A DNA stretch of 64,000 bases from Candidatus Pyrohabitans jungbluthii (GCA_002010065.2 MTMD02000002.1:256001-320000), one strand, 5' to 3'. Shown: positions 8,295-48,815, counted from the stretch's first letter. Numbers and translations are program-made. Notes: generated by a model not told the origin, from the letters alone.

Positions 8295-8367
8295 GGGCCC
8301 GTAGCTCAGCTGGTAGAGTGCTCGCTTGGCATGCGAGCGGCCCCGGGTTCGAATCCCGGCGGGTCCA
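8295..8367 (+). tRNA. tRNA-Ala (GGC), intronless, CCA not encoded
   Basis: GGGCCCG/CGGGTCC acceptor stem with G3:U70; CTCGC-TTGGCAT-GCGAG anticodon arm; GGTTCGAATCC T-arm. Confidence 0.97.
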
Positions 8368-21842: not shown

Positions 21843-23303
21843 TTAAGAACCAAATATTTTTGCTTCGGTTGTAGCACATTTTTTGAATTTGATGTTGTGA
21901 AATTCTTCAAATACCCTTTTAGCTGCTTCATTTACTTTTTTTCGAATATTATTATCTGGGGGTGCAAACACATGCCCTTTTAACTTAGTTTCTCCATAAG
22001 CGGTTAACCACCAATCTGCTGGAAATATTTTGTTTAATGTAACAAATTTATTTTTACTTACTTTTACGAGGCACTGAGATGGTTCTCGTAAAGAAGGCGG
22101 CTGAGGAATGTCCACCCAAATTTCATATACACTGCATATACCATCAACTTCATCTACTATAAGTTCTCTTAATTCTCTTATGGAAATTGGATCTTCAGCA
22201 AACCTAATTAACCTCTGATAATCTAAAACATTTTTTATACATCTACGAGAAATAATTAGTGCCCTTTTTAATAGTAGTCGTCGCTTTAAGTTATTAATGA
22301 TAGGTCTAATCTCTGAAATTTTTGCAAAATTTGATAATATATCATAATCGTCTATTTTTAGAAAATCTACTGAATTTCTAAAGTTTAACCCATCAAATTC
22401 GATATTGTAATCATAAATTATCTCAAATATACTTTTTAACATACAAGTTGCTGCCCTAATTTTATGATGATGATATATTGAAGAATAAAGGAGCACTTTG
22501 TTGAATAAAACTTGTTCTACGTTATGTACTCCACTGATATCTATACATACTCTTCTGGGATATCCTCTTCTAAAGTCTATCAATGTTGTATGCATTATAC
22601 GATCAAGGTCTACTTCCATTTTTAGACCAGAAAAATGTGCATCTCGAGGGATATAATCCAATTTATCACAATCAAAAGCCCCATTTATTAAGTCTGCTTT
22701 GTAAAATTCTCTGTCATATCCATCCGTATTACCTATTATCATATTTGCTATCTTTTGAATATCCCAATTTCTGTGATATTTTGACATTAAGTCATCAAAG
22801 AAATCTTTAAATGGCTTAGAAGTTATTATCATATAAGACAATATCTCATGAGGTTTTGCTTTACTGAATTTGGGGTCTTTAAGTGCTTTTTGCATATCTT
22901 TTAGTTGGATTAGTATTTCTTCTGATGGATGTGAGAAAGGACCATGACCTATGTCATGTAAAAGAGCTGCAAGTCGTAATTCTTCAATAGTATTTGTGTC
23001 AAACATCGCTTTAAATTTTTTCTTTAATGCATTAGCAATTTTGTCTACAATAATCAATACTCCTATCGAATGTTCAAAACGATTATGATGTGCTGAAGGG
23101 TATGTTAAAAACGCTAAACCTGTTTGGTGAATTCTACGAAGTCTTTGGACGAATGGGAGGTCTATTATATTAATCTCATGCTCATGAAAAAGATACGAAC
23201 CAACGACTCCATCACGGATTAGTTTTCTATCTCGTACATTATAGGGTTCATATTCTGAAAGTTGCTCGTCTACGAACCTCTCAATTGACGAAGCTAATGA
23301 CAA
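21843..23303 (-). CDS. HD-domain phosphohydrolase, SAMHD1/dGTPase/YwfO-like
   Basis: QRLRRIHQ, HNRFEHSIG, LLHDIGHGPFSH, HE, DCDKLDYIPRD, IYHHH. Confidence 0.9.
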   Translation of the reverse strand: MSLASSIERFVDEQLSEYEPYNVRDRKLIRDGVVGSYLFHEHEINIIDLPFVQRLRRIHQTGLAFLTYPSAHHNRFEHSIGVLIIVDKIANALKKKFKAMFDTNTIEELRLAALLHDIGHGPFSHPSEEILIQLKDMQKALKDPKFSKAKPHEILSYMIITSKPFKDFFDDLMSKYHRNWDIQKIANMIIGNTDGYDREFYKADLINGAFDCDKLDYIPRDAHFSGLKMEVDLDRIMHTTLIDFRRGYPRRVCIDISGVHNVEQVLFNKVLLYSSIYHHHKIRAATCMLKSIFEIIYDYNIEFDGLNFRNSVDFLKIDDYDILSNFAKISEIRPIINNLKRRLLLKRALIISRRCIKNVLDYQRLIRFAEDPISIRELRELIVDEVDGICSVYEIWVDIPQPPSLREPSQCLVKVSKNKFVTLNKIFPADWWLTAYGETKLKGHVFAPPDNNIRKKVNEAAKRVFEEFHNIKFKKCATTEAKIFGS

Positions 23304-23332
23304 AACAATCCCCCCATTTTTATTAATTATAC

Positions 23333-23782
23333 TTATCTTTCAATAATTAATGAATGGAATTTTTTACTCATCTCTTTTAATTTTCTTTTTTCTTCATCTG
23401 AAAATAGTGGTAAAATGTTTCTTCTTATATAATTTCTAGAATTTGCAGGGATGATACATCTTTTAAAATCCGGATTAACGGTACTAATTATCCCTCCATT
23501 TTGAAGTCTAAATAGAACTCTTTCAAGCAATTTTGAAAAAGGATAGATGTCTCCCTTTGAAAATACAAATTCACCTAAAAGTTCGGGATAATCATTTTTA
23601 AGATAGTTGATCGCAGAATGGATTTTTTCATAATCTGCAGGAATTTCTTCTGTTTCTAGGAATGAAAGCATTGCGGCTATAACATCATCGGGAGTACGAC
23701 GTAACCTCAGCTCTTTTAGTATATTTCTCTTTTTTTCTTCACCTAGCCTATCTTTTTTTGGTAAAGTAATAAATTCATACAT
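23333..23782 (-). CDS. Hypothetical protein, YwgA/SocA-like winged-helix candidate
   Basis: GGAGG RBS; FVFSKGDIYPFSKLLERVLFRLQNGGII resembles the F-x-F...P[FY]S..L...L..L...G motif. Confidence 0.6.
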   Translation of the reverse strand: MYEFITLPKKDRLGEEKKRNILKELRLRRTPDDVIAAMLSFLETEEIPADYEKIHSAINYLKNDYPELLGEFVFSKGDIYPFSKLLERVLFRLQNGGIISTVNPDFKRCIIPANSRNYIRRNILPLFSDEEKRKLKEMSKKFHSLIIER

Positions 23783-24010
23783 TCCCTTTTACCTCCTTTA
23801 GAGTTATTATTAAAATCTTTTCTAGAAGCGCTGGAAAAGTAATAAATAACATACCCTCTCCCACCAAACAGTGTTTCCCACTGAGTTCCATTTTTCTCTT
23901 CATAGTATTAATTATTAATGGATAAATTAATATTATATAAATTTTATTATTTGGTTTGGAATTTGAAATTCCATATTTAATTTTTATTACTTGATTAGGA
24001 TGAGTTAACA

Positions 24011-35496: not shown

Positions 35497-36738
35497 TTAA
35501 GCTTTAAACCAATCAGATACTTTCTCTTGTGGAAAGAAATTATCTCCTGAAACAATAATGTGTAGTCTTGTATATACACCTCTCGGGACAGATAGAGCCC
35601 CAATACTATTTAATCTTTCACTTGGTTTCAAATTATAAGTTTTTTCTCTAGTCTGGGAATACACTTTGCCTTCTTCTGTTGTATCGAATCCTGCCCAAAT
35701 TTTCAGATTTTCAGCAGTTGCAGAACCTTCATTCTTAACGGTTATATTTATCTCGTAAGTAACATAAAATGGGCTTGAATTAACACTTCTAGATGTAAAT
35801 TCTACGGTTATAATAGGCTTTGGAATAAAGTGCCTTAATATTGCCTCAGTTCCTGTATATTCATCTGGTATCTCGCCGATCTCCCAACCTTCTCCTGTGG
35901 TTTCTATGTAGCAAAAACTATTACCATTACTATCCTCATAAGTGCCTTCTTCGCATTTAACCCCAACTGCCATATGGTTTGGGAATTCCAGCAAAACAGC
36001 ATCATACCCTAATTCATTAATTAAAACAGCTGTCAAAATTGATAAATCTTCACAGTCACCACCTTTGTCTACTAATGTTTCTATCGGGTATCTGGGATAT
36101 TCATCGAAAGGTGTTGTGATGTTATCAGATGTATAAGGCAAACTTTGGACAAAACTAATAACAAAATTTACAGTTTCATATTCATCAAATCCGTTTCTTT
36201 TTGAGACGTTTTTAAACAAATTTGCAAGTTGTGAGATTAGTCTATCGTCATAGGGGTCAGTAGCATAAATTGAATAATCTCCCGTCGGTGGACGTGGCTT
36301 ATTTTTATAATACTCATATAGTGTTTTAGGAAATATTAGGTTCCAGGCATATTGATTTCCTTTGAAATTCCATTTATATTCTCTTAGAATGTAATTTTGT
36401 GTCTCATTTGGTGGAATACAAAATAGCTCTTCTACCCTTGAAGCACACTGATAGTTAGTAGAAACATCGCAATAGTATATTGTTCTACTTTGCTTGAAAT
36501 TTGTACAATTGTTCCATGAAGATGGTTCTGGGCACTGAGGACAAAATTTTACATCCGTTTCTTTTACACTAAAATCTGCGTTATCTGTTGGGATAAATGT
36601 GTATGTAAGAAACCCTAAAAATAATAAGAAGTTGAATTCATAAATAAGAAATTTCACAAGATAATCGTTAATCTTGTTGGATCCATTAGAAATGGATTTA
36701 TTTAGGTTAGAGATCCTGGTGAGAATGTTAAATATCAA
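35497..36738 (-). CDS. Membrane-anchored transglutaminase-like protein with C-terminal Ig-like (CARDB-like) domain, on an AT-rich island
   Basis: GGDCEDLSIL, NHMAVGV, YIETT (Cys-His-Glu); VKNEGSATAEN; start uncertain. Confidence 0.75.
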   Translation of the reverse strand: MIFNILTRISNLNKSISNGSNKINDYLVKFLIYEFNFLLFLGFLTYTFIPTDNADFSVKETDVKFCPQCPEPSSWNNCTNFKQSRTIYYCDVSTNYQCASRVEELFCIPPNETQNYILREYKWNFKGNQYAWNLIFPKTLYEYYKNKPRPPTGDYSIYATDPYDDRLISQLANLFKNVSKRNGFDEYETVNFVISFVQSLPYTSDNITTPFDEYPRYPIETLVDKGGDCEDLSILTAVLINELGYDAVLLEFPNHMAVGVKCEEGTYEDSNGNSFCYIETTGEGWEIGEIPDEYTGTEAILRHFIPKPIITVEFTSRSVNSSPFYVTYEINITVKNEGSATAENLKIWAGFDTTEEGKVYSQTREKTYNLKPSERLNSIGALSVPRGVYTRLHIIVSGDNFFPQEKVSDWFKA

Positions 36739-36970
36739 ATCGGGCCCCCCAAATCATACAATTAATGTTTTATTTGTTCTATTTAAAATATAACTTTTAC
36801 AATGCGATGCGACATCCGAAAAATAAGTTATATCTGCTGATGACGGCAAATAGCTAAATTTTCACCTAAATTTTTATATTTCATGAAATGAGAGCAATGT
36901 GAAAATTTTAAAAAGAGACAATTAAACAATTTGCTGAATAAACGCCTATATCCTTTTTGCTTTTTTGGTA

Positions 36971-37903
36971 TCAAAAATTATACTTGTGCACACAATCCTC
37001 GGCTCTTATTCTGTCGTAATCGCGAGCCATCGCAGGCGTTAGCCAGGGCTTTACGCTTTTCATGGCGTAGCGTATGTCCTCCATGGTTACAATTACGCCG
37101 TCGCCTGAGGCGCGCTGAATCGCCATAAGCTTGGCTTTGCGCGCCAGGCTCTCCAAGTCCCAGCCCACGTAGTACTCCGTCTCTTCTGCAAGCTTCTCCA
37201 GGCTTACATCCTCAGCAAGGGCGACGCCAGAGAAGTAGTACTTCAGTATTGCTAGGCGGTCTTCATAGCTCGGGCGGGGCACGTATATCTTCCTGCCCAG
37301 CATTGAGGTGCGCGTAAACGCCTGGTCAAGCACGTCTATACGGTAGCAGCTCGCCGCGACAAAAATCTCGGGGTCGTACGCGACGCTCGCAATTTCCTCA
37401 TGCACAGCGCGGTGCACTTCCGGCGTTCCGAGCTTATCAGGCTTTCCGTAGGTTGAGCCGTCGCTCCACTCATAGTTAGCGTCCCTGCGGGGAGCTAACC
37501 AGTCCAGGTCCATAAGGTGCACCAGCACCGGCTTATGCTCCCGCGCCCACTCGAAGGCTCTGCGGATAACCTCCTCCTGTGCGGTGCATTCGCGACCTCG
37601 TATGATTAGGTAATTAACACCAGCCTCTTTAGCGCTGGCCTCTATAAGGTGCCCTCTGCCTGTGCCCAGAGGTCCCCACACTATAACGCCAGTGGGAGGC
37701 TGGATTCCTGCCTTTTTCAGAGCTTCGCCGTACTTAAGCGGCGTAACCACAATATCGCGGAACCTCTCCTTTACCTCATCGTAGCCCGCGATCTGCTCAA
37801 AGCTGAAGCGTGGCTCGAGAACATCGAGGTAAACCTCAAAATACTCCTCGATGCTTTTTTTAGAAGAGCCCTCAATATCCTCGTAGCTCATCCGCTTGGT
37901 CAT
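36971..37903 (-). CDS. Cdc48/PAN-like single-module AAA+ protein, degenerate (paralog B)
   Basis: FEQIAGYDEVKERF...PLKYGE; Walker A-like GPLGTGRG; Walker B-like LMDLD; lid domain; ends DCVHKYNF. Confidence 0.8.
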   Translation of the reverse strand: MTKRMSYEDIEGSSKKSIEEYFEVYLDVLEPRFSFEQIAGYDEVKERFRDIVVTPLKYGEALKKAGIQPPTGVIVWGPLGTGRGHLIEASAKEAGVNYLIIRGRECTAQEEVIRRAFEWAREHKPVLVHLMDLDWLAPRRDANYEWSDGSTYGKPDKLGTPEVHRAVHEEIASVAYDPEIFVAASCYRIDVLDQAFTRTSMLGRKIYVPRPSYEDRLAILKYYFSGVALAEDVSLEKLAEETEYYVGWDLESLARKAKLMAIQRASGDGVIVTMEDIRYAMKSVKPWLTPAMARDYDRIRAEDCVHKYNF

Positions 37904-37912
37904 GTTCTCCCC

Positions 37913-38782
37913 CTAATACATGTAGCGGTGCTTGCACTCCTCTTTATAAATATCGTCATAGCGGCGCAGCATCTCCGGCGTAAGCTCAGGGGTTATGCGC
38001 TCAAGTGCTTGCAAAAAATGCCTGAGCTTAACGCTGCTGAAGTTGTTTTTCTCCTCCTTTATTGCCATGAGCGTCGCCTGCCTTGGCAAGGAAAACAGCT
38101 GGGAAGGCGTGTGGTAGGCTGTTGCTTCAGCGAGCTTCTCCAGCGAGACGTCCTCGCCTAAGGGCACGTCGCTGAGCACCCTCTTGAGAATCTCAAGCCT
38201 GTCCTCAAACGCTGCGGGGGGCACGTATATCTTGCGGTCTATCCTGCCGTTGCGCAGCAGCGCCGGGTCGAGAATATCCACACGGGAGCTTGATACGAGT
38301 ATCTTAACGTCGTCGCGGTCGGCAAGCTCATCCACGCACTTAAAAAGCAAACGCGTCGCCTCGCGAGAGGCGAACACAGGTGGAGGAGGCAGAAGTGCTG
38401 ACTCAGCCTCGCGGCGCGGCGCTAAAATTTCCACCTCGCTTATGAACACCAAGCTTGGCGCCAGTTCGCGAGCAGCGTCGAAGAGGTGCTCAATGCTGTG
38501 CTCCTCCTCCACTAGGTTCTTCGCCTGCGCCGATAATAGCGTTACGCCCGCCTCCTTGGCGCTCGCCTCGGCAAATGTAGCAAAGCTGTTGGGTGGACCC
38601 CACATGAGTATGCCCCTCGGAGGGCGAAGACCGGCTTGTTTAAACGTCTCCGGGTGCTTCAGCGGGAGCACCACCATCTCCTCGAGGCGCTCCTTCACCT
38701 CCCAGAAGCCAGCTATTTCTTCAAAGCCAACCTCAGGCTCCTTAACCTTGAAGTACTGCCCTGGCTCAAGAACCTCGCACAT
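37913..38782 (-). CDS. Cdc48/PAN-like single-module AAA+ protein, degenerate (paralog A)
   Basis: FEEIAGFWEVKERLEEMVVLPLKHPE...PPRGILMWGPP; SRH LDPALLRNGRIDR; ends ECKHRYMY. Confidence 0.82.
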   Translation of the reverse strand: MCEVLEPGQYFKVKEPEVGFEEIAGFWEVKERLEEMVVLPLKHPETFKQAGLRPPRGILMWGPPNSFATFAEASAKEAGVTLLSAQAKNLVEEEHSIEHLFDAARELAPSLVFISEVEILAPRREAESALLPPPPVFASREATRLLFKCVDELADRDDVKILVSSSRVDILDPALLRNGRIDRKIYVPPAAFEDRLEILKRVLSDVPLGEDVSLEKLAEATAYHTPSQLFSLPRQATLMAIKEEKNNFSSVKLRHFLQALERITPELTPEMLRRYDDIYKEECKHRYMY

Positions 38783-38783
38783 G

Positions 38784-39854
38784 TTACCTTGCTCCCATCT
38801 TCTTTCCTGCGTTAACCATAACCTTAAGGTTTTCTATGGGCGTGCCCGCGTGCAAGCCACAGCTGGAGGAGACTATGTAACCCTCGCTGCCCGCGCTGGT
38901 TATGCATTTCTCAACATTACCCTCGATCTCGGCGCGGGTGCCTCGATAGATGGTGTCCACAGAGACGTTTCCGAATAGCGCTACGCGGTTACCAACACGG
39001 CGCTTGGCATCGCGCAGGTCAACGCTCTCGTCAACGCTCAAGCAAGAGGCCCCTGTTTTTGCAAGGTCTTCCAGTATTGGTGTGGTGTCACCGCAGATGT
39101 GGATTATAACTTCGCCTCCATACTTGCGCAGCGCAGAGCAAACCTTCTTCTCGTAGGGGTAGGCGAACTCGCGGTAGTGCACAGGCGATATTACCTGGGC
39201 CGCAGCGCTCGGGTCTTCCATCATTATCCCGTGCGTGCCCAAGTCGATCTGTCTCTTACCTATCTCAATCGCCACCTCAGTCATAAACTCAAGCAAGCGG
39301 TGAACCTCTCTAGGCTGGGTTATCATGTCCAGCATGAAGTTCTCCATGCCGCGCATCCACTCTGCGGCGTAGTGAAAGGGCGCTGGAACCTTGCTGCATA
39401 TGTAGACTTCGCCCTTTGTCTTTTCGAGCAAAGCCTTAAGCGGCTCCCACCTCTCGGGCTTATCCAGGTCTGGCATCTCCAGCTTGTCCAGCTCATCGTA
39501 GCTTTTAAGCGCCGGCTCCTTAACCGCGGGTCCACCCTCCAGGGGTATCTTCAGGGTAGTGCCCAGCTCAGTAGGGAGCACCACAAAGCCATTCTCCACC
39601 CGCATTGCTCGCCTTTCCTCTCTTGTAATCCCCTGGATGGGCTGGTGGTTGAATATCCAGTCGTAGCCATAGAGGCGCCATGCCTTGAGCTGGCCCTTAA
39701 CGTAAAGCTTGTTGTCTGTGACGTACTCCCAGGGTTTAACCCCCAGCACACGGGAAGCGTGGGGCACATTTACCATCGGCGCTACTGGCACGCGGTCAGG
39801 CGTGCCGCGCTGCATGGCTTCGCGGAACCTCTTTAACGAGTTCACGCTTCCCAC
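38784..39854 (-). CDS. MtaA/CmuA-family (URO-D fold) methylcobamide:thiol methyltransferase
   Basis: DRVPVAP, MRGMENF, Zn motif HICG...SSSCG, LFGNV. Confidence 0.87.
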   Translation of the reverse strand: MGSVNSLKRFREAMQRGTPDRVPVAPMVNVPHASRVLGVKPWEYVTDNKLYVKGQLKAWRLYGYDWIFNHQPIQGITREERRAMRVENGFVVLPTELGTTLKIPLEGGPAVKEPALKSYDELDKLEMPDLDKPERWEPLKALLEKTKGEVYICSKVPAPFHYAAEWMRGMENFMLDMITQPREVHRLLEFMTEVAIEIGKRQIDLGTHGIMMEDPSAAAQVISPVHYREFAYPYEKKVCSALRKYGGEVIIHICGDTTPILEDLAKTGASCLSVDESVDLRDAKRRVGNRVALFGNVSVDTIYRGTRAEIEGNVEKCITSAGSEGYIVSSSCGLHAGTPIENLKVMVNAGKKMGAR

Positions 39855-40479
39855 GCTCCTTCATAAGCTTCTCGCACAGCTTAACCGCTTTAGCGGCATC
39901 GCTTGCGTAGCCGTCGGCGCCAATCTCGCGGGCGTAACTTTCGCTCGCCGCCGCGCCGCCTATAATCACGAGCACATCATCGCGCAGTCCTGCCTCTTCC
40001 AGTGCTTCGATGACCTCCCGCATCTTGACTATCGTTGTTGACATCATCGCCGAAAGCCCGAGAATGTCTGGCTTGTACTTGCGTGTCTCCTCAACAAAAA
40101 CCTGCGTCGGCACATCTCTACCGAGATTCTTAACCTCGAAGCCAGCGCCTTCCAGGAACATGGACACGAGGTTCTTGCCTATATCGTGCACATCGCCGGC
40201 GACGGTGCCAATGAGCACCTTACCTTGAACCTCGACTTTATCGTAGTTGAGCAGGGGGCGAATAATGTCCAAACCTCGCTGCATCGCGTGCGCACTGAGC
40301 AGCGTCTCAGGTACATAGTAAACCCTGCGCTCAAAGAGGTCGCTGACCACCTCCATGCCTGAGATCATGTCTTTTAGGATGTCGTTCGCAGCTTCGCCGT
40401 GTTCAAGGGCAGCGTTGACAAGCTCCTCAATTTCGTATATTTTCCCTTCAATTACCGCCTTCTTTATCTCTTCGCCCAT
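39796..40479 (-). CDS. Methyltransferase cognate corrinoid protein (MtaC/MttC-like)
   Basis: Cap domain, GDVHDIGKN (DxHxxG), LSAMMSTT, IIGGA, GADGYASDA. Confidence 0.93.
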   Translation of the reverse strand: MGEEIKKAVIEGKIYEIEELVNAALEHGEAANDILKDMISGMEVVSDLFERRVYYVPETLLSAHAMQRGLDIIRPLLNYDKVEVQGKVLIGTVAGDVHDIGKNLVSMFLEGAGFEVKNLGRDVPTQVFVEETRKYKPDILGLSAMMSTTIVKMREVIEALEEAGLRDDVLVIIGGAAASESYAREIGADGYASDAAKAVKLCEKLMKERGKRELVKEVPRSHAARHA

Positions 40480-40529
40480 GTCGATAACCAGCAGAAAAGC
40501 TAACGTTTGGAATAGCTCTTAAAAGATGT

Positions 40530-40949
40530 TTAAGAAAATTTTAATTGTCTACCTTGCAGGATATGCTCCACCTCCACCCCGCGCTTCTCGAGCTCCTCGG
40601 CTATGAACCTGCGGTGGCAGTAGCGCGGGTTTTCTTCAAGGCACATTATCACCACCCTCCTAAGTCTAGCGCGTTCAATAAGCTCCTTCAGCCCGCGCTT
40701 AAATTCTTCCGTGGCAGTATAAGCGAGGTAGCTTGGTTTGCGGTAACCCCCCAGAGCCTTTAAGTGGTGGTAGGCGATGCCCGCACTTTCAAGGTGTTCC
40801 TTTAACTTCTCCTGCTTGAAATCCTCCTTCTTCGATGTGGGGAAGCTGCGTACATCGATGAGTTCCTCAATCCCGAGGCTTTTTAGGGTGCTGATAAAAT
40901 CGGAGATGCTCATCTTCGCATAGCCTATTGTAAACACCTTCATACTCAT
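40530..40949 (-). CDS. DUF488 family protein
   Basis: FTIGY, LIDVRSFPTS, LGGYR, MCLE...CHRRFIA. Confidence 0.88.
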   Translation of the reverse strand: MSMKVFTIGYAKMSISDFISTLKSLGIEELIDVRSFPTSKKEDFKQEKLKEHLESAGIAYHHLKALGGYRKPSYLAYTATEEFKRGLKELIERARLRRVVIMCLEENPRYCHRRFIAEELEKRGVEVEHILQGRQLKFS

Positions 40950-41014
40950 ACTCCGTCACCCTATCGCTTCGCGAGACGGGTAACTCCGTCACCCGAAACT
41001 GCGTTCCGGGTAAC
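40950..41014. repeat. Two tandem hairpins GTCACCC-Nx-GGGTAAC; 12-bp direct repeat ACTCCGTCACCC
   Basis: Hairpins at 40955-40984 and 40988-41014; direct repeats at 40950 and 40983. Confidence 0.7.
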
Positions 41015-41797
41015 CCAGCAGCCGTTCAGAAGCATCTCCAGCTTGGGGTGGGTGAATGAAGTGTAGTCCAGAATCAGGAGGTCCTTATTCTCGCCGAGAA
41101 TGGTGTCCACATAGCCGTACCAGTACACAACTATGCCAGGACCAAAGTTTTTTATGTAGTGGGAGAGCTGCTTCCTCATATAGAGCTTGTGCTCTTCCTC
41201 GTCTGCGAAAACTGCCTTGCTTTCCACCCACGCTACGCGCATTCCGAGGATTCTCAAGCCACTGACCAAGAAGTCGGGGGTCTTTGCTCCTGCCATCTTG
41301 ACCATACTGTCCTCGCTTATAAAGGCCGCGCCTCTGCTGCGAAGCCAAGCTTTAATTATCTCCTCTCCCAGCTCTCCGCGAATGCGCTGCCTTTCGTGGG
41401 CTTGCCTGGAGAATACAAAATCCCTAGCCTGAGCATCAGCTAACTCCATATCCAGCCTCTCATTGCCGGAGCCCTCGCCATTGAGGGCAAGCCTCTTCAC
41501 CTTCTTCCTGGAGAAACCCATGGCAGAGAGCAAAAAGCGAGCGATGAGTACGGGTGGGAAGTTCCTCTCTTCGGCGATTTCCACAATGCTCTTGCCAGCC
41601 TCCCACTCTGCAAGAAGCTCCTCTTTACGCTTCTCCAAGAGGTGGTAGCTCTCCTTTACGCTTCTAACAACCTTCAGGTTGAGCACAGCTTCCAGCACAC
41701 CCTCTGGCAGGCGAAGCTTCTTAGCGTAAATGCACGCATCCTCTGGAGAACTTACCAAGGAGTATATATGCCGGTACTCCTCTTTCCTGAGGGGCAT
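40961..41797 (-). CDS. C15orf41/CDIN1-like (TPD domain) PD-(D/E)xK nuclease family protein
   Basis: KTPDFL, WVESKAVF, QLSHYIKNFGPGIVVYWYG; start set at ATG 41797. Confidence 0.82.
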   Translation of the reverse strand: MPLRKEEYRHIYSLVSSPEDACIYAKKLRLPEGVLEAVLNLKVVRSVKESYHLLEKRKEELLAEWEAGKSIVEIAEERNFPPVLIARFLLSAMGFSRKKVKRLALNGEGSGNERLDMELADAQARDFVFSRQAHERQRIRGELGEEIIKAWLRSRGAAFISEDSMVKMAGAKTPDFLVSGLRILGMRVAWVESKAVFADEEEHKLYMRKQLSHYIKNFGPGIVVYWYGYVDTILGENKDLLILDYTSFTHPKLEMLLNGCWVTRNAVSGDGVTRLAKR

Positions 41798-41859
41798 TTT
41801 TATAACCCCCAAGGTTAACGCTGGAAAAATACAAAAGGCGGGCAGAGGGATAAGAAAAC

Positions 41860-42213
41860 ATGCGCTATTTAATTCACACCTCAAGCGGTGACTTTGTGTG
41901 CAGGGCGAAGCTTGCGGATACCTTCTTCGCCCGTGCTATAGGTTTGATGTTCAGGCGGGATTTAGCTAGAGATGAGGGGCTGCTGATAAAGTTCCCGGGC
42001 TACGCAAAAGGTGCAGCAATCCACTCCTTCTTCATGCGCTTTCCCATAGACCTCTACTTTATTGGCGAGGATATGCGCGTAGTTGAGCACGCGACGCTTA
42101 AGCCGTGGAGCTGGTACAAGCCAAGCAAGGCTTGCACCTATGTGCTTGAGGTAAAAGCGGGGAGCGTCGCTTTAAAGCCAGGGGAGAGGCTGAGGCTCAC
42201 CCCTCTGCCCTGA
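41860..42213 (+). CDS. DUF192 family protein
   Basis: ADTFFARAIGLMFR, IHSFFMRFPID, YVLEV. Confidence 0.9.
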   Translation: MRYLIHTSSGDFVCRAKLADTFFARAIGLMFRRDLARDEGLLIKFPGYAKGAAIHSFFMRFPIDLYFIGEDMRVVEHATLKPWSWYKPSKACTYVLEVKAGSVALKPGERLRLTPLP

Positions 42214-44245
42214 ACCTGCGCAGCAGGAAGGTGTAGAACTCCTCCCCGCTCTTCCTGCTCAGCCTTTCAAGTATGAGCTCTGGCGTGGAGCGCGCGAGCT
42301 TTCCCAGCACTGGGTTGCGGTCGACGATGAGGTTCAGGTTCTCATCTAAGCCCTTAGCCTCAATGCCGTCGATGCGCACGCTGGGCAAGCCCAGGCTGAG
42401 GAGCTCTTCCCCCAGGTGGGTTACAATCGCCACAAGTGTGCCGCTATCGCGGGAGAACCACTCCAGCATGGCTGCGATAATCTTCGCCGCGGCTCCAGGT
42501 TCAGTCACCGCCTCTATCTCGTCGGCCAGAATAAGCCTACGCTCAGCCTTGGAGGCTGCTATCCCCGCGAAGCTCCTGAGAAGCGACTCAAAGGCACCTG
42601 CTCCGCTTTCTCCGCGCCGCTTTGCAAAGAAGTAGAGCTTTTGCAACAGTGGTACCTCGGCACTCTCCGCGAGCACAGGCAAGCCGGACTGAGCCATTAT
42701 CTGCACCTGGGCTATGGTCTCGAGAAGCGTAGTTTTGCCCCCCGAGTTCGCGCCGGTGATAACAGCGATTCTCTTGCTGTTAAAACCAAGCTCATAGCTC
42801 ACCGGCTGGGGTTGAGAGGAGGCGCTAAGCAAAAGGTGGCGCGCATTCACAAAGCGAAGCCTCATGGCTTCGCTCACCTTTGCCTGAGTTGCGGAGTAGC
42901 GCAGACTGAAGCTTCCCAGCGCTAGGAGGTAGTCAAGCTCAAGGGCAAGCTCAACGCTGCGTTTTACGCCTGCTACCTTGCTCGCCAGCTTAACAGCAAG
43001 CTCCCTCTTTGCCGCAAAGCTACGGCGTGAAGCCTCGGCGCTGAGCCACGCTTCCACGTCTGCGCTCCTTTCAGGGTTGAGTTCTATGGGATAGGAGACA
43101 GAAAATAAGCCTGCGAACCTCAGCGCCTCACTGCTTAAGCGGAGCCTCTCCGCAAGCTTCGCCTCGTATTCCTCCGCCACCTCTGCTATAACCTCGCGAA
43201 GCTCCTCCGGCAGGTAGCTTCCGGGCGAGGCGCTTATCCTAGCAAGCAGGTCAAGCATCTCTGCGCCGCGAATTGCCACGCCCCGCTTCTCCACACGGCG
43301 CTCAACCTCGCGGTTTGCCTCTTCCACGCAAGCTTCGCTGAGAAGTGCAAAATTAGCGCTGGCATAGGCGTAGGGGTTCTCATCCTCCTTCAGCCTTTTG
43401 ATCCTCTCTGCGATGCGTGCAAGCTCTTCGCCACTCAGGTGCTCCTTACCTATGAGGCGGAGTCTCTCCTCTCCGACTATAGCGAGCACCTCTGCACAGG
43501 TCTCAATCACACTGAGGTTCTCCTCAAAGAAGGATAGGGTAAGCTCGGGAAGAGCTTCAGGCTCTGAGAAATCTGGGAATACCTCCGCATTGGCAGCACC
43601 GCCCAGCATGGAGGCGTAGCCTTTGCTTCCCTGAATATAGCGCACCAGCTCGAAACTGCGCAGCGCTTCCAGGTCTTCTGGGCTCTCTACCAGGAGTACC
43701 TCTATGATGCCTCTGTACTTAGATGATAGCTCCTGGTAGAGTTCCTCGTCCTCCACTGCGAGCACCTGCGAAGCCACCCTCACGTTTCGAGGGGTTTTCG
43801 GATAGCCCATGCCCTTAAGCAGGCGACGAACCTCGCGAAGCTTCTCTGCGCCCAGCGCCTTCGCAAGCTTTACACCCAGCGCAACGTCGCGACGCAGCAC
43901 CTCCAAGCTATTTTCAGACGCCACAGGGTAGAAAAGCGAGAGCTTCGCCTTAGCGTAGCTCGTGCATGCCTCTTTGCGCAAAGCTTCGAGCACCTGCGCG
44001 TATATCTGCCTAGCCTCCGGGGTGGCTAGTATGTCGGCATACTCCACCCCCGTAACCCTTGAAAAAATCTCTCTTGCTATTTCCACCTGCTTCGCTGGCG
44101 CTACGCTGGAAGAGAAGAGCTCATAGAACCTGAGGGAAGCGAAGGAGCGCAGCGCCCTGGCTTCGCTGCCATAGGCTGAGATAAGCTCGGCCCTTACCTT
44201 CTCTCCCACACCTTTTATATCTCTCAGGCTTGTGAGCATGCTCAC
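42197..44245 (-). CDS. Archaeal MutS2/MutS5-like ATPase with N-terminal HhH
   Basis: IKGVGEK; TGANSGGKTT; AGAFES; DEIEAVTEPGAA; VTHL. Confidence 0.88.
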   Translation of the reverse strand: MSMLTSLRDIKGVGEKVRAELISAYGSEARALRSFASLRFYELFSSSVAPAKQVEIAREIFSRVTGVEYADILATPEARQIYAQVLEALRKEACTSYAKAKLSLFYPVASENSLEVLRRDVALGVKLAKALGAEKLREVRRLLKGMGYPKTPRNVRVASQVLAVEDEELYQELSSKYRGIIEVLLVESPEDLEALRSFELVRYIQGSKGYASMLGGAANAEVFPDFSEPEALPELTLSFFEENLSVIETCAEVLAIVGEERLRLIGKEHLSGEELARIAERIKRLKEDENPYAYASANFALLSEACVEEANREVERRVEKRGVAIRGAEMLDLLARISASPGSYLPEELREVIAEVAEEYEAKLAERLRLSSEALRFAGLFSVSYPIELNPERSADVEAWLSAEASRRSFAAKRELAVKLASKVAGVKRSVELALELDYLLALGSFSLRYSATQAKVSEAMRLRFVNARHLLLSASSQPQPVSYELGFNSKRIAVITGANSGGKTTLLETIAQVQIMAQSGLPVLAESAEVPLLQKLYFFAKRRGESGAGAFESLLRSFAGIAASKAERRLILADEIEAVTEPGAAAKIIAAMLEWFSRDSGTLVAIVTHLGEELLSLGLPSVRIDGIEAKGLDENLNLIVDRNPVLGKLARSTPELILERLSRKSGEEFYTFLLRRFRAEG

Positions 44246-47570: not shown

Positions 47571-48815
47571 CTAAAACCTGGCGATTCCCCACTTATCGAT
47601 GGCAGCCTTCAGCTCCTCATGCTCCTGTGCGTACTCCTCCAAGGCTATGCCCTGGAGCGTCGCCTCTAACGCTTGACGCATGGCTCGAGCGCCTGCCTCA
47701 GCGCCGAGGGGATGGCCGTAGATTCCGCCACCAGCCAATATCAGCGCATCCTCACCCAGGTAATGAACATTCGCAGGTATCTTGCCGGGATGCTGTCCCC
47801 CAGAGGATACAGGCAGGGCACGCCTCAGCTTTCCCATTTTCTGCTTAAGCACAGCAGCGCTCTCAAGCACAGAGTCTATGTCCTCGTACAGCTTGCCGAG
47901 AATCGCGCCTACGTGCACCTGATCTCCGCCGGCAAGGCGAGCAAGCTTGCTAACCACGACGGTGCTTATTCCGTGCACCTCGCTGCGCGTAAAGGCGGCG
48001 AACATATCGCGGTGGCAGTGCACGGGCACATTTATGCTTGGGTCCTCGCACAGCACGCGCAGCGCCGAGAAGCCCGCGGTGATGAAGTTTAGCATCAGGC
48101 AATTGGCTCCGTTTTCAAGGGCGATGTCGGCGTTATCTAAAATCTTATCAACCTCGTCGGTTACGTTGACCGCATAAAGCGTCTTCTCACCCTTCTCCTC
48201 GTTGGCTTTATCTATAGCCTCCATTGTAACAGAGACGCGCTCCTCTATCGGGGAATATTCAGGGTTTGCGATGAGCTCGTCGTCCTTGATAAAATCGACG
48301 CCCCCTTTCGCAGCGAGATAGCACGCCTCAGCGAACTTCTTTGGCGGCAGGCCAACGCAGGGCTTTACAATTGTGCCTATCAGCGGTCTCCCCTTCACTC
48401 CGAGAAGCTCTTTGCAGCCTGAGATTCCAAACTTGGGCCCGCGAAACTCGCTGAGGTAGCTATCCGGAAACTCCAGGTCGAGTAATTTAATGTTCCTAAA
48501 CTCACCCATCTCGAAGAGGTTGCCCGCCACGGTGGTGAGGAGCATGGGCAGGCATACGCCGAAGTTGCCGTGGGGGAAGGCGATTCTCAGCCTGCCTTTA
48601 TTTAACTCTCCCTCCTTGCCAAGCTTCTCCACCTCCAGCACCTTGGCGCTGTACCTTGCTATTAGATCGTCGCTCTCAAAGCCCACCCTTACCCAGGTGC
48701 CGGTGCTCTGCTCCGCCGCCAGAGCTTCGGCAGCCTTTTCCAAATCCATGGGCGTTTCCAGATAGTAGGTGGCGATGACATAGCTCTCCTCATCTATAGC
48801 CTGAGCGAACCTCAT
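47571..48815 (-). CDS. RuBisCO large-subunit superfamily protein, probably form IV (RuBisCO-like protein)
   Basis: AEQSTGTW, GPKFG, KPCVG, GGVDFIKDDE, HR, GKL, SSGG, GGGIYGHP. Confidence 0.9.
   Translation of the reverse strand: MRFAQAIDEESYVIATYYLETPMDLEKAAEALAAEQSTGTWVRVGFESDDLIARYSAKVLEVEKLGKEGELNKGRLRIAFPHGNFGVCLPMLLTTVAGNLFEMGEFRNIKLLDLEFPDSYLSEFRGPKFGISGCKELLGVKGRPLIGTIVKPCVGLPPKKFAEACYLAAKGGVDFIKDDELIANPEYSPIEERVSVTMEAIDKANEEKGEKTLYAVNVTDEVDKILDNADIALENGANCLMLNFITAGFSALRVLCEDPSINVPVHCHRDMFAAFTRSEVHGISTVVVSKLARLAGGDQVHVGAILGKLYEDIDSVLESAAVLKQKMGKLRRALPVSSGGQHPGKIPANVHYLGEDALILAGGGIYGHPLGAEAGARAMRQALEATLQGIALEEYAQEHEELKAAIDKWGIARF

Follow-up and report, generated by a model that had tools for sequence, protein, structure and literature searches.

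What are two AAA+ proteins that have lost the residues of a working ATPase doing in an operon for corrinoid-dependent methyl transfer? The question is raised by positions 36971-40479 of a 64,000-nucleotide stretch of Candidatus Pyrohabitans jungbluthii (GCA_002010065.2, MTMD02000002.1:256001-320000; the whole stretch is referred to as the window). An initial annotation had described four tightly packed, co-oriented genes at this locus, encoding a corrinoid protein with a DxHxxG motif, an MtaA/CmuA-type enzyme with a Zn motif and two degenerate AAA+ proteins. Listing of open reading frames (ORFs), Pfam searches and alignments confirmed this picture with the same coordinates:

39796..40479, minus strand: corrinoid (cobamide-binding) protein, 227 aa, with PF02310, PF02607 and the His-on motif DVHDIG.
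38784..39854, minus strand: UroD_A, MtaA/CmuA-like methyltransferase of the URO-D fold, 356 aa when read from the longest ORF, with PF01208 and the Zn motif H-I-C-G ... S-S-C-G.
37913..38782, minus strand: AAA1, single-domain Cdc48-D2-like pseudo-ATPase, 289 aa, Pfam AAA with an expect value (E) of 6.8e-15.
36971..37903, minus strand: AAA2, single-domain Cdc48-D2-like pseudo-ATPase, 310 aa, Pfam AAA with E 2.8e-11.

The answer that we favor, with a probability of roughly one half, is that AAA1, AAA2 and a third paralog encoded elsewhere in the genome, AAA3, would form a hetero-oligomeric ring that does not thread polypeptides and that acts as a dedicated structural or maturation partner of UroD_A and its paralog UroD_B by means of conserved C-terminal tails, with reactivation of the corrinoid protein being left to RamA.

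The fold of the AAA proteins is readily recognized. PF00004 matches both proteins encoded in the window, and the lid model PF17862 matches AAA2 with 41.6 bits (cut-off 27.2) and AAA1 with 16.1 bits only. The AlphaFold2 model of AAA1 (pLDDT, the predicted local distance difference test score, 92.4) has its nearest Foldseek match in the D2 domain of p97 (3cf0, template-modelling score (TM) 0.79), and a profile of the family finds VAT and p97 D2 as its top solved matches. Pfam, the model and Foldseek thus agree on an AAA+ alpha/beta fold with helical lid. Assignment to a known family fails: the top NCBIfam model for AAA1 and AAA2 is CDC48 (TIGR01243) with 173.8 and 153.5 bits against a cut-off of 802.65, and the PAN model (TIGR01242) gives 158.4 and 119.1 bits against 500. 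A profile search of representative proteins was uninformative as to breadth, since nearly all of the 150 listed matches were Cdc48 proteins with several domains, which rank above the AAA family by adding up the scores of their domains; the only single-domain proteins among the matches listed were P0135 and P0144.

We compared the catalytic motifs with those of Cdc48 D2 and PAN from the same genome. AAA1 carries GPPNSFAT in place of the Walker A motif GPPGTGKT and SE instead of DE in Walker B. The corresponding motifs of AAA2 are GPLGTGRGH (GPLGxGKGH in most orthologs) and MD. Both proteins are missing the stretch of five residues on which pore loop 1 sits, have gained about 11 residues behind Walker B and have no sensor-1 Asn. 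Both arginine fingers are present in AAA1 (LRNGR); the second is lost in AAA2. AAA3 has an intact GK[ST] Walker A motif and NE in Walker B. These states were then counted in 125 distinct family proteins:

AAA3: GK[ST] 22/22, Walker B NE 22/22, arginine-finger motif RxxR 1/22.
Y-type: GK[ST] 9/9, Walker B NE 9/9, RxxR 8/9.
AAA1: GK[ST] 0/62, Walker B DE 5/62, RxxR 62/62.
AAA2-type (AAA2/X): GK[ST] 1/19, Walker B MD 17/19, RxxR 2/19.
Distant clade: GK[ST] 0/13, Walker B SD 13/13, RxxR 0/13.

The aromatic-hydrophobic-Gly motif of pore loop 1 was found in none of the 125 proteins. The canonical DE occurs in five, all of them AAA1 proteins devoid of GK[ST], and the sensor-1 Asn is kept only in 19/62 AAA1 proteins. 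The AAA proteins are an undescribed AAA+ subfamily, which lies under every curated cut-off and fails four of the features that define a working classic AAA+ ATPase. Judging from these residues, the AAA1/AAA2 pair cannot hydrolyse ATP alone or thread a chain, the latter because the pore loops are absent. For AAA3, binding of nucleotide is more likely than motor activity, because its Walker B Asp is replaced by Asn and the sensor-1 Asn is missing.

A family tree (FastTree with local supports, rooted with Cdc48 D2 and PAN) showed the AAA family to be monophyletic with a support of 100. One branch, clade X, unites AAA2, a form from a second lineage and the distant clade. The other, clade Y, comprises the Y-type proteins, with intact Walker A, both fingers and a tail of the form ECxHRYxY, followed by AAA3 and AAA1 as sister groups. 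Taken together with the motif counts, this suggests that the two went separate ways after duplication: AAA3 retained the P-loop but is short of a finger, whereas AAA1 retained the fingers but no P-loop. A subunit of an AAA+ ring contributes its arginine fingers to the site of the subunit next to it, and complementary loss of this kind would be expected if AAA3 and AAA1 were obligate neighbors in one ring.

The initial annotation had assigned the AAA pair a different task: to act as an ATP-dependent reductive activator or as an ATP-driven remodeller in analogy to RuBisCO activase, in place of the usual RamA/RACE protein, in returning Co(II) to Co(I). The operon in the window indeed lacks a RamA gene, its AAA genes are tightly linked to the corrinoid gene, and AAA3 with its invariant GK[ST] could still bind ATP. 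The genome does, however, contain one RamA/RACo gene: PF14574 matches only at G000:C14:97953-98747 (G000 being the genome of the window), within an ORF at 96837-98777, and it matches no AAA gene. Among the 41 genomes nearest to that of the window, RamA is present in 24, including nine of the ten that carry the AAA set, the tenth being 62% complete, and at two loci (L054, L082) it directly adjoins the AAA-containing cluster. The AAA proteins accompany RamA rather than stand in for it. They also have the fold of p97 D2 instead of the ASKHA fold that defines the RACE proteins, no Fe-S motif was seen in them, the tail holds their only Cys and His residues invariant across the paralogs, and neither the Walker residues of AAA1 and AAA2 nor the pore loops nor sensor 1 are in a state fit for such work. 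An activator or activase-like role is therefore very improbable.

The gene for RamA lies in a second corrinoid cluster (G000:C14:95088-99770) together with a URO-D protein (350 aa), a corrinoid protein (228 aa) and an MtrH-like methyltransferase (330 aa), RamA/RACo itself having 646 aa; two further URO-D paralogs lie upstream (L039/L040/L041). These parts match those of the Mto O-demethylase system, which, as described in PMC8630106, consists of a substrate-specific methyltransferase 1 (MT1), corrinoid protein, activase and an MtrH-like MT2.

The enzymes next to the AAA genes belong to known folds and to no curated family. The corrinoid protein matches the B12-binding domain (PF02310, E 2.4e-28) and the B12-binding_2 domain (PF02607, E 1.4e-16), and DVHDIG is visible in its translation. 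It reaches 186.2 bits with TIGR02370, under the cut-off of 215.3, and lies far under every cut-off of the MtgC, MtbC and MtaC models; its orthologs in relatives are 58-65% identical and occupy the same position. UroD_A matches URO-D (PF01208) with E 2.7e-70. Its top NCBIfam models are of the methylcobalamin:coenzyme M (CoM) and MtaA/CmuA types, all under cut-off (TIGR01463 161.8 bits versus 235.4; the MtaA/MtbA equivalogs 138 versus 400 and 126.5 versus 600). A profile of UroD_A orthologs has MtaA (4ay7) as its closest solved structure, with HICG and SSSCG aligned to HICGN and PGCG. Both motifs, which we take to hold the Zn ligands, are invariant in 11 orthologs at a mean column identity of 74%. 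UroD_A is restricted to its lineage: 37 clusters have at least 54% identity, UroD_B-type proteins follow at 37-39%, and none is above 32% after these. McrA, MttB, MtaB and ComA were not found in the window genome (2.0 Mb, 15 contigs, 99.95% complete). With no McrA or ComA there is no methanogenic context for CoM-directed methyl transfer in this genome, although the absence of ComA alone leaves CoM possible.

UroD_A had also been taken for a lone MT2-type enzyme, which does not hold. A paralog, UroD_B (C10:59701-60708), is 39% identical to it, has the same HICG...C motif and has in common with UroD_A an insertion relative to the five other URO-D paralogs of the genome. It is divergently oriented from AAA3 (C10:58733-59611). 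In relatives the genes UroD_B, corrinoid protein, UroD_A, AAA1 and AAA2 stand in one cluster, headed by UroD_B in five of them (L032, L034, L035, L037, G025:C80). AAA3 is located directly upstream of UroD_B in L034 and 2-3 kb from AAA2 in L032 and L033. The operon in the window is half of a larger six-gene module, limited to Hydrothermarchaeales-type archaea. The relatives are assigned to Candidatus Hydrothermarchaeota or Hydrothermarchaeales, with one homolog cluster labelled Thermodesulfobacteriota (P0056).

The AAA set and the UroD genes are inherited together. The AAA family is present in 10/41 relatives and UroD_A/B orthologs in 11/41, namely the same ten and G021. The latter genome is 78% complete, and its UroD_A gene lies 291 bp away from the end of a contig, on the side where AAA1 would be expected. 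Presence is mixed within several family groups (f1 2/10, f4 2/4, f8 2/6, f10 1/2; in f9 2/2), so that the set appears to have been repeatedly gained or lost as a unit. We also recorded the neighbors of AAA genes within a radius of 6 kb, pooling genome, genome-contig and metagenome loci, counting each distinct gene once at its longest locus and requiring at least 2.5 kb on both sides:

AAA1: UroD_A/B nearby in 7/7, all seven also with the corrinoid gene.
AAA2-type (AAA2/X): UroD_A/B nearby in 8/11, the exceptions being L046, L077 and L078.
AAA3: UroD_A/B nearby in 3/4.

The adjacency is seen in three independent arrangements. One is co-oriented corrinoid-UroD_A-AAA1-AAA2, and another has AAA3 divergent from UroD_B (contig C10 of the window genome and L034). 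The third belongs to a second lineage, where a gene resembling UroD_A and a Y-type AAA gene are divergently oriented, the latter being followed by a short URO-D gene (L047, L048). Adjacency of AAA and UroD genes exceeds chance. Neutral evolution of the AAA genes, which the initial annotation had named as evidence against its proposal, was not observed. Ratios of nonsynonymous to synonymous substitution (dN/dS, Nei-Gojobori) against the same-genus relative L053 are 0.16 for the corrinoid protein, 0.05 for UroD_A, 0.04 for AAA1 and 0.16 for AAA2; against the same-family relative L034 synonymous sites are saturated and the proportion of nonsynonymous differences (pN) is 0.16-0.27. The AAA genes are kept by purifying selection as strongly as the enzyme genes, and these ratios together with the invariant motifs rule out that they are decaying pseudogenes. 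The AAA genes can be regarded as a dedicated companion of the corrinoid/URO-D system, as the initial annotation had suspected.

An ABC-2 type exporter, consisting of ATPase and permease, adjoins UroD_B in the window genome (L038:5834-7533, contig C10) and in L032 (16360-18073), with 48-51% identity between the genomes. An ABC-2 pair is also located 1 kb from the dead-AAA gene of the bacterial locus L113 (42% identity to the L032 permease, 50% to the ATPase), and L114 has the permease only (46%). This recurrence may be due to chance.

How the AAA proteins could act on the enzymes is suggested by their C-terminus. All paralogs end in a tail of the form C-x-H-x-Y-x-[FY], which reads ECKHRYMY in AAA1 and DCVHKYNF in AAA2. 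Spaced as i, i+2 and i+4, its Cys, His and Tyr do not vary among the three paralogs at the seven loci compared, which come from six genomes, and 121 of 136 hmmsearch matches with E below 1e-60 end in C.H.Y.. (the 15 remaining ones being four tail variants and eleven fragments or Cdc48/PAN-like pieces). The last helix of the AAA1 model (residues 269-283) ends at the invariant Cys, and residues 286-289 are disordered. AAA3 has one additional Cys in the tail (C-x-H-C). AAA1 has a second conserved Cys in its N-terminal Met-Cys-Glu, invariant in 27/27 aligned proteins.

Invariant Cys and His at the end of a helix could indicate a metallochaperone or maturation factor, which would bind the UroD enzymes transiently and deliver or hold a metal, which could be the Zn of the HxC...C site or some other cofactor. 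The additional Cys in AAA3 would fit, as would the extra His in the tails of the bacterial relatives, the His-rich N-termini of three of them, the metalloenzymes that neighbor the family in both branches (Zn-URO-D proteins versus U32 with a Cys-rich partner) and the nearby FmdE and 142-aa proteins with their Cys-rich, zinc-finger-like motifs described below. However, the AAA proteins match no metal-binding family in Pfam or NCBIfam, two ligands per tail are few, and the tail could equally well be a docking peptide; moreover, we know of no metallochaperone in the classic AAA+ clade. We consider this explanation unlikely.

Alternatively the tail itself might be the substrate, its Cys thiol accepting a methyl group from a Zn-URO-D enzyme or its Cys-His-Tyr triad being modified into a protein-derived cofactor. 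MtaA-type enzymes methylate Zn-activated thiols, the three residues are fixed in spacing, and modifying-type enzymes recur nearby (a variant radical-SAM protein, NF045502, and U32 in bacteria). On the other hand, this idea is purely inferential, we found no precedent for it, a methylated Cys would be a dead end, and the neighbors differ between the archaeal and the bacterial branch. It is the least probable of the readings considered.

What the sequences show directly is which genes are present, the state of their motifs, their joint inheritance and the purifying selection on them. From this we infer a ring, its physical binding to the UroD enzymes, a role of the tails, and a substrate side and an acceptor side, as follows. 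Going by the families concerned, the His-on corrinoid protein would act as methyl carrier between UroD_A and UroD_B, a pair of paralogous, Zn-dependent methyltransferases with an MtaA-like TIM barrel, of which one would serve the substrate side and the other the acceptor side. The RamA-type activase encoded elsewhere in the genome would perform the reductive reactivation. AAA1, AAA2 and AAA3 derive from the D2 domain of Cdc48, with loss of pore loop 1, of the sensor-1 Asn and of most of the hydrolysis machinery. Most likely they would assemble into a single ring, an obligate hetero-oligomer in which each AAA3-AAA1 pair offers no more than one interface for binding nucleotide. This ring would be a nucleotide-stabilized platform or assembly partner that holds or matures both UroD enzymes, and its C-x-H-x-Y-x-[FY] tails may serve as docking or metal-binding elements toward them.

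Some evidence against this proposal comes from a second conserved gene group. It comprises a 142-aa Zn-ribbon protein (CxxC...CxxC), a 90-aa protein, FmdE with a zinc finger and a class-I S-adenosylmethionine (SAM) methyltransferase (L032:6307-10807; G000:C15:86920-88945 and C15:70635-71702), often with a winged-helix regulator and the variant radical-SAM protein nearby (NF045502, 163.6 bits versus a cut-off of 125). It adjoins AAA3 or AAA2/X at eight loci (L032, L046, L049, L077, L078, L079, L088, L089), and the 142-aa protein is encoded in 9/10 genomes with the AAA set and in 1/31 others (G004). AAA3 and AAA2/X are linked to this group about as often as to UroD genes (for AAA3 3/4 versus 3/4), and three AAA2/X genes have it as their only companion, no UroD gene lying within 6 kb. 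The AAA proteins might accordingly belong to the FmdE/SAM-methyltransferase group, the UroD and corrinoid genes being one client among several or a syntenic neighbor. We regard this as improbable: AAA1 adjoins UroD_A in 7/7 cases, the window genome has the second group on contig C15, apart from all three AAA genes, each of its AAA loci retains a UroD gene, and G004 has the group without an AAA set.

A complex prediction of UroD_A with AAA1 and AAA2 alignments (score 0.00, mark 0.32) counts neither for nor against binding. Further points weigh against the ring as partner of the UroD enzymes. In the window genome the parts are dispersed over contigs C2, C10 and C15. The related genomes are not independent samples, co-inheritance being given without a statistic, and the FastTree topology has long outgroup branches. 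Finally, URO-D or corrinoid neighbors were found for 0/13 members of the distant clade. Because this clade has no methyltransferase context, the basic function of the family is not specific to methyl transfer.

The distant clade consists of bacterial proteins at 36-40% identity (13 distinct sequences from 14 metagenome loci). They are single-copy, in contrast to the two or three paralogs of the archaea. They show the same pore-loop deletion and insertion and a tail of the form DC[PS]H[HY]Y.F with an extra His, have a His-rich N-terminus in three members, and lack the Walker lysine and the arginine fingers. A search with the L113 member returned 358 clusters at E <=1e-40; Desulfuromonas, Geoalkalibacter, Geothermobacter, Deferrisoma, Nitrospirota and Actinomycetota are among the source names of the 120 clusters listed. 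The dead-AAA gene is preceded by a U32 (UbiU-like) gene and a gene for a Cys-rich partner of 272-289 aa at L113:6207-8882, L120:3274-6196 and L136:5208-8081. In L108 and L114 the partner can be seen where the contig starts, and in L107 and L109 neither gene was seen upstream. That the 272-aa protein is a hidden AAA protein was ruled out (hhalign probability 2%).

A pair of related TIM-barrel metalloenzymes thus recurs beside the AAA family in both branches. This permits a wider reading, in which pore-loop-less proteins with a C-x-H-x-Y-x-[FY] tail would be a new functional class of non-motor AAA+ rings. By means of nucleotide-gated tails these would supply paired TIM-barrel enzymes with metal or cofactor, or keep the two enzymes of a pair together. 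Hydrothermarchaeales would have the two Zn-URO-D methyltransferases as clients, and anaerobic bacteria the pairs of U32 Fe-S enzymes; a ring would present six Cys/His/Tyr tails, gated at the few surviving nucleotide sites, and the archaeal trio would have become an obligate hetero-hexamer by complementary degeneration. We put this generalization forward as speculative and rather doubtful in its entirety.

Within the window, the following regions flank the operon, both read by eye, as were the gene junctions, since a sigma-70 promoter and terminator scan is inapplicable to archaea:

40480..40529, minus strand: 50-bp intergenic region upstream of the corrinoid gene, with TATA-like TTTTAAGA at 40517-40524.
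36739..36970, minus strand: AT-rich 232-bp intergenic region with oligo-T runs after the stop codon of AAA2.

The first, whose TATA-like element lies 38 nt ahead of the first ATG of the corrinoid gene, is the likely operon promoter, and the second the likely end of the transcription unit. GC content is 0.43 for 36001-38000. With the longest GTG start of UroD_A the corrinoid and UroD_A genes overlap by 59 bp, compared with 4 bp (L032, L037), 14 bp (L033) and 23 bp (L034) in relatives. This large overlap results from the longest-ORF start and from a longer C-terminus of the corrinoid protein in the genus of the window (227 or 225 aa versus 208-222 aa in other relatives); the true UroD_A start is probably a few codons downstream. 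UroD_A and AAA1 are joined as TAAcATG with a 1-nt gap, and the 9-nt gap between AAA1 and AAA2 contains GGGGGAG.

Directly downstream of AAA2 an ORF of low GC content (35497-36738, 413 aa) has a weak transglutaminase-like match under cut-off. It is not conserved at the loci of relatives, which places it outside the module. On the upstream side, a DUF488 protein (139 aa), a TPD-motif protein (307 aa) and a MutS-domain-V protein (682 aa) are encoded on the same strand at 40530-44245, and none of them recurs beside the module in relatives. An ORF at 47571-48815 (414 aa) resembles by eye a RuBisCO large-subunit-like protein; a link to this gene, about 7 kb away, was dropped, as it is UroD that accompanies the AAA genes in all arrangements. 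Elsewhere in the window there is one tRNA (8295-8367) and an island at 21843-23782 (GC 0.31 for 22001-24000 versus about 0.54 around it), which encodes an HD + HD_assoc_2 protein (486 aa) and a 149-aa protein without Pfam match and is possibly foreign DNA.

Corrinoid methyl-transfer systems are usually treated as three enzymes and a RACE activase. In the present case an entire lineage has enlarged this scheme by a conserved AAA+ set in which both ATP hydrolysis and threading have been given up. Should the ring bind or mature the methyltransferases, cobamide enzymology would gain a new kind of accessory factor, and hetero-oligomeric rings a clean natural example of complementary loss; if the idea of ring and tails is true, the mode of action of this AAA+ subfamily would be new. 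Dead-AAA genes beside U32 in cultured bacteria (Desulfuromonas, Geoalkalibacter, Deferrisoma) offer a tractable route to its basic function. The metabolic reading of the genome is corrected as well, to an Mto-like cluster and a second, undescribed methyl-transfer module without Mcr. In full-text literature searches we found no description of AAA+ proteins with corrinoid methyltransferases, in line with the initial annotation, which knew of no such component, and nothing on the dead-AAA family itself (U32 with AAA; inactive pore-loop AAA+ in archaea). The main texts of two Hydrothermarchaeota genome papers contain corrinoid, MtaA and AAA zero times, although their supplementary tables may list these genes.

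Compared with known systems, all parts have known folds (classic-clade AAA+, URO-D/MtaA-like, MtaC-like corrinoid protein), each under every curated family cut-off. With MtaABC, MtsAB and MtoABCD the module has in common a corrinoid protein with B12-binding and cap domains, URO-D enzymes with the Zn motif of MtaA and a RamA in the genome. It differs in that its two methyltransferases belong to a single URO-D subfamily confined to this lineage, within which they are close paralogs, and in that three dead or near-dead AAA+ genes belong to the conserved set, which no system described in the literature searched has. Like RamA and RACo, the AAA proteins are genomically associated with corrinoid methyltransferases, and AAA3 possibly binds nucleotide; unlike these they have a p97 D2 instead of an ASKHA fold, show no Fe-S motif and co-occur with RamA. 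Profile matches, the fit of the AAA1 model to 3cf0 and the presence of both the large alpha/beta subdomain and the lid tie the family to the D2 domain of Cdc48, VAT and p97. In contrast to these, AAA1 and AAA2 are single domains without N domain and D1, and the family is set apart by the deleted pore loop 1, the insertion after Walker B, degenerate Walker A, Walker B and sensor 1, and the C-x-H-x-Y-x-[FY] end. The closest precedents for its decay are NSF D2, Pex1/Pex6 D1 and Rpt1-6, in which subunits keep fold and interfaces, lose catalysis, and paralogs are specialized within a ring. In those cases, to our knowledge, an active threading ring is always attached, whereas here pore loop 1 is gone from every member and the bacterial branch has dispensed with Walker lysine and arginine fingers altogether.

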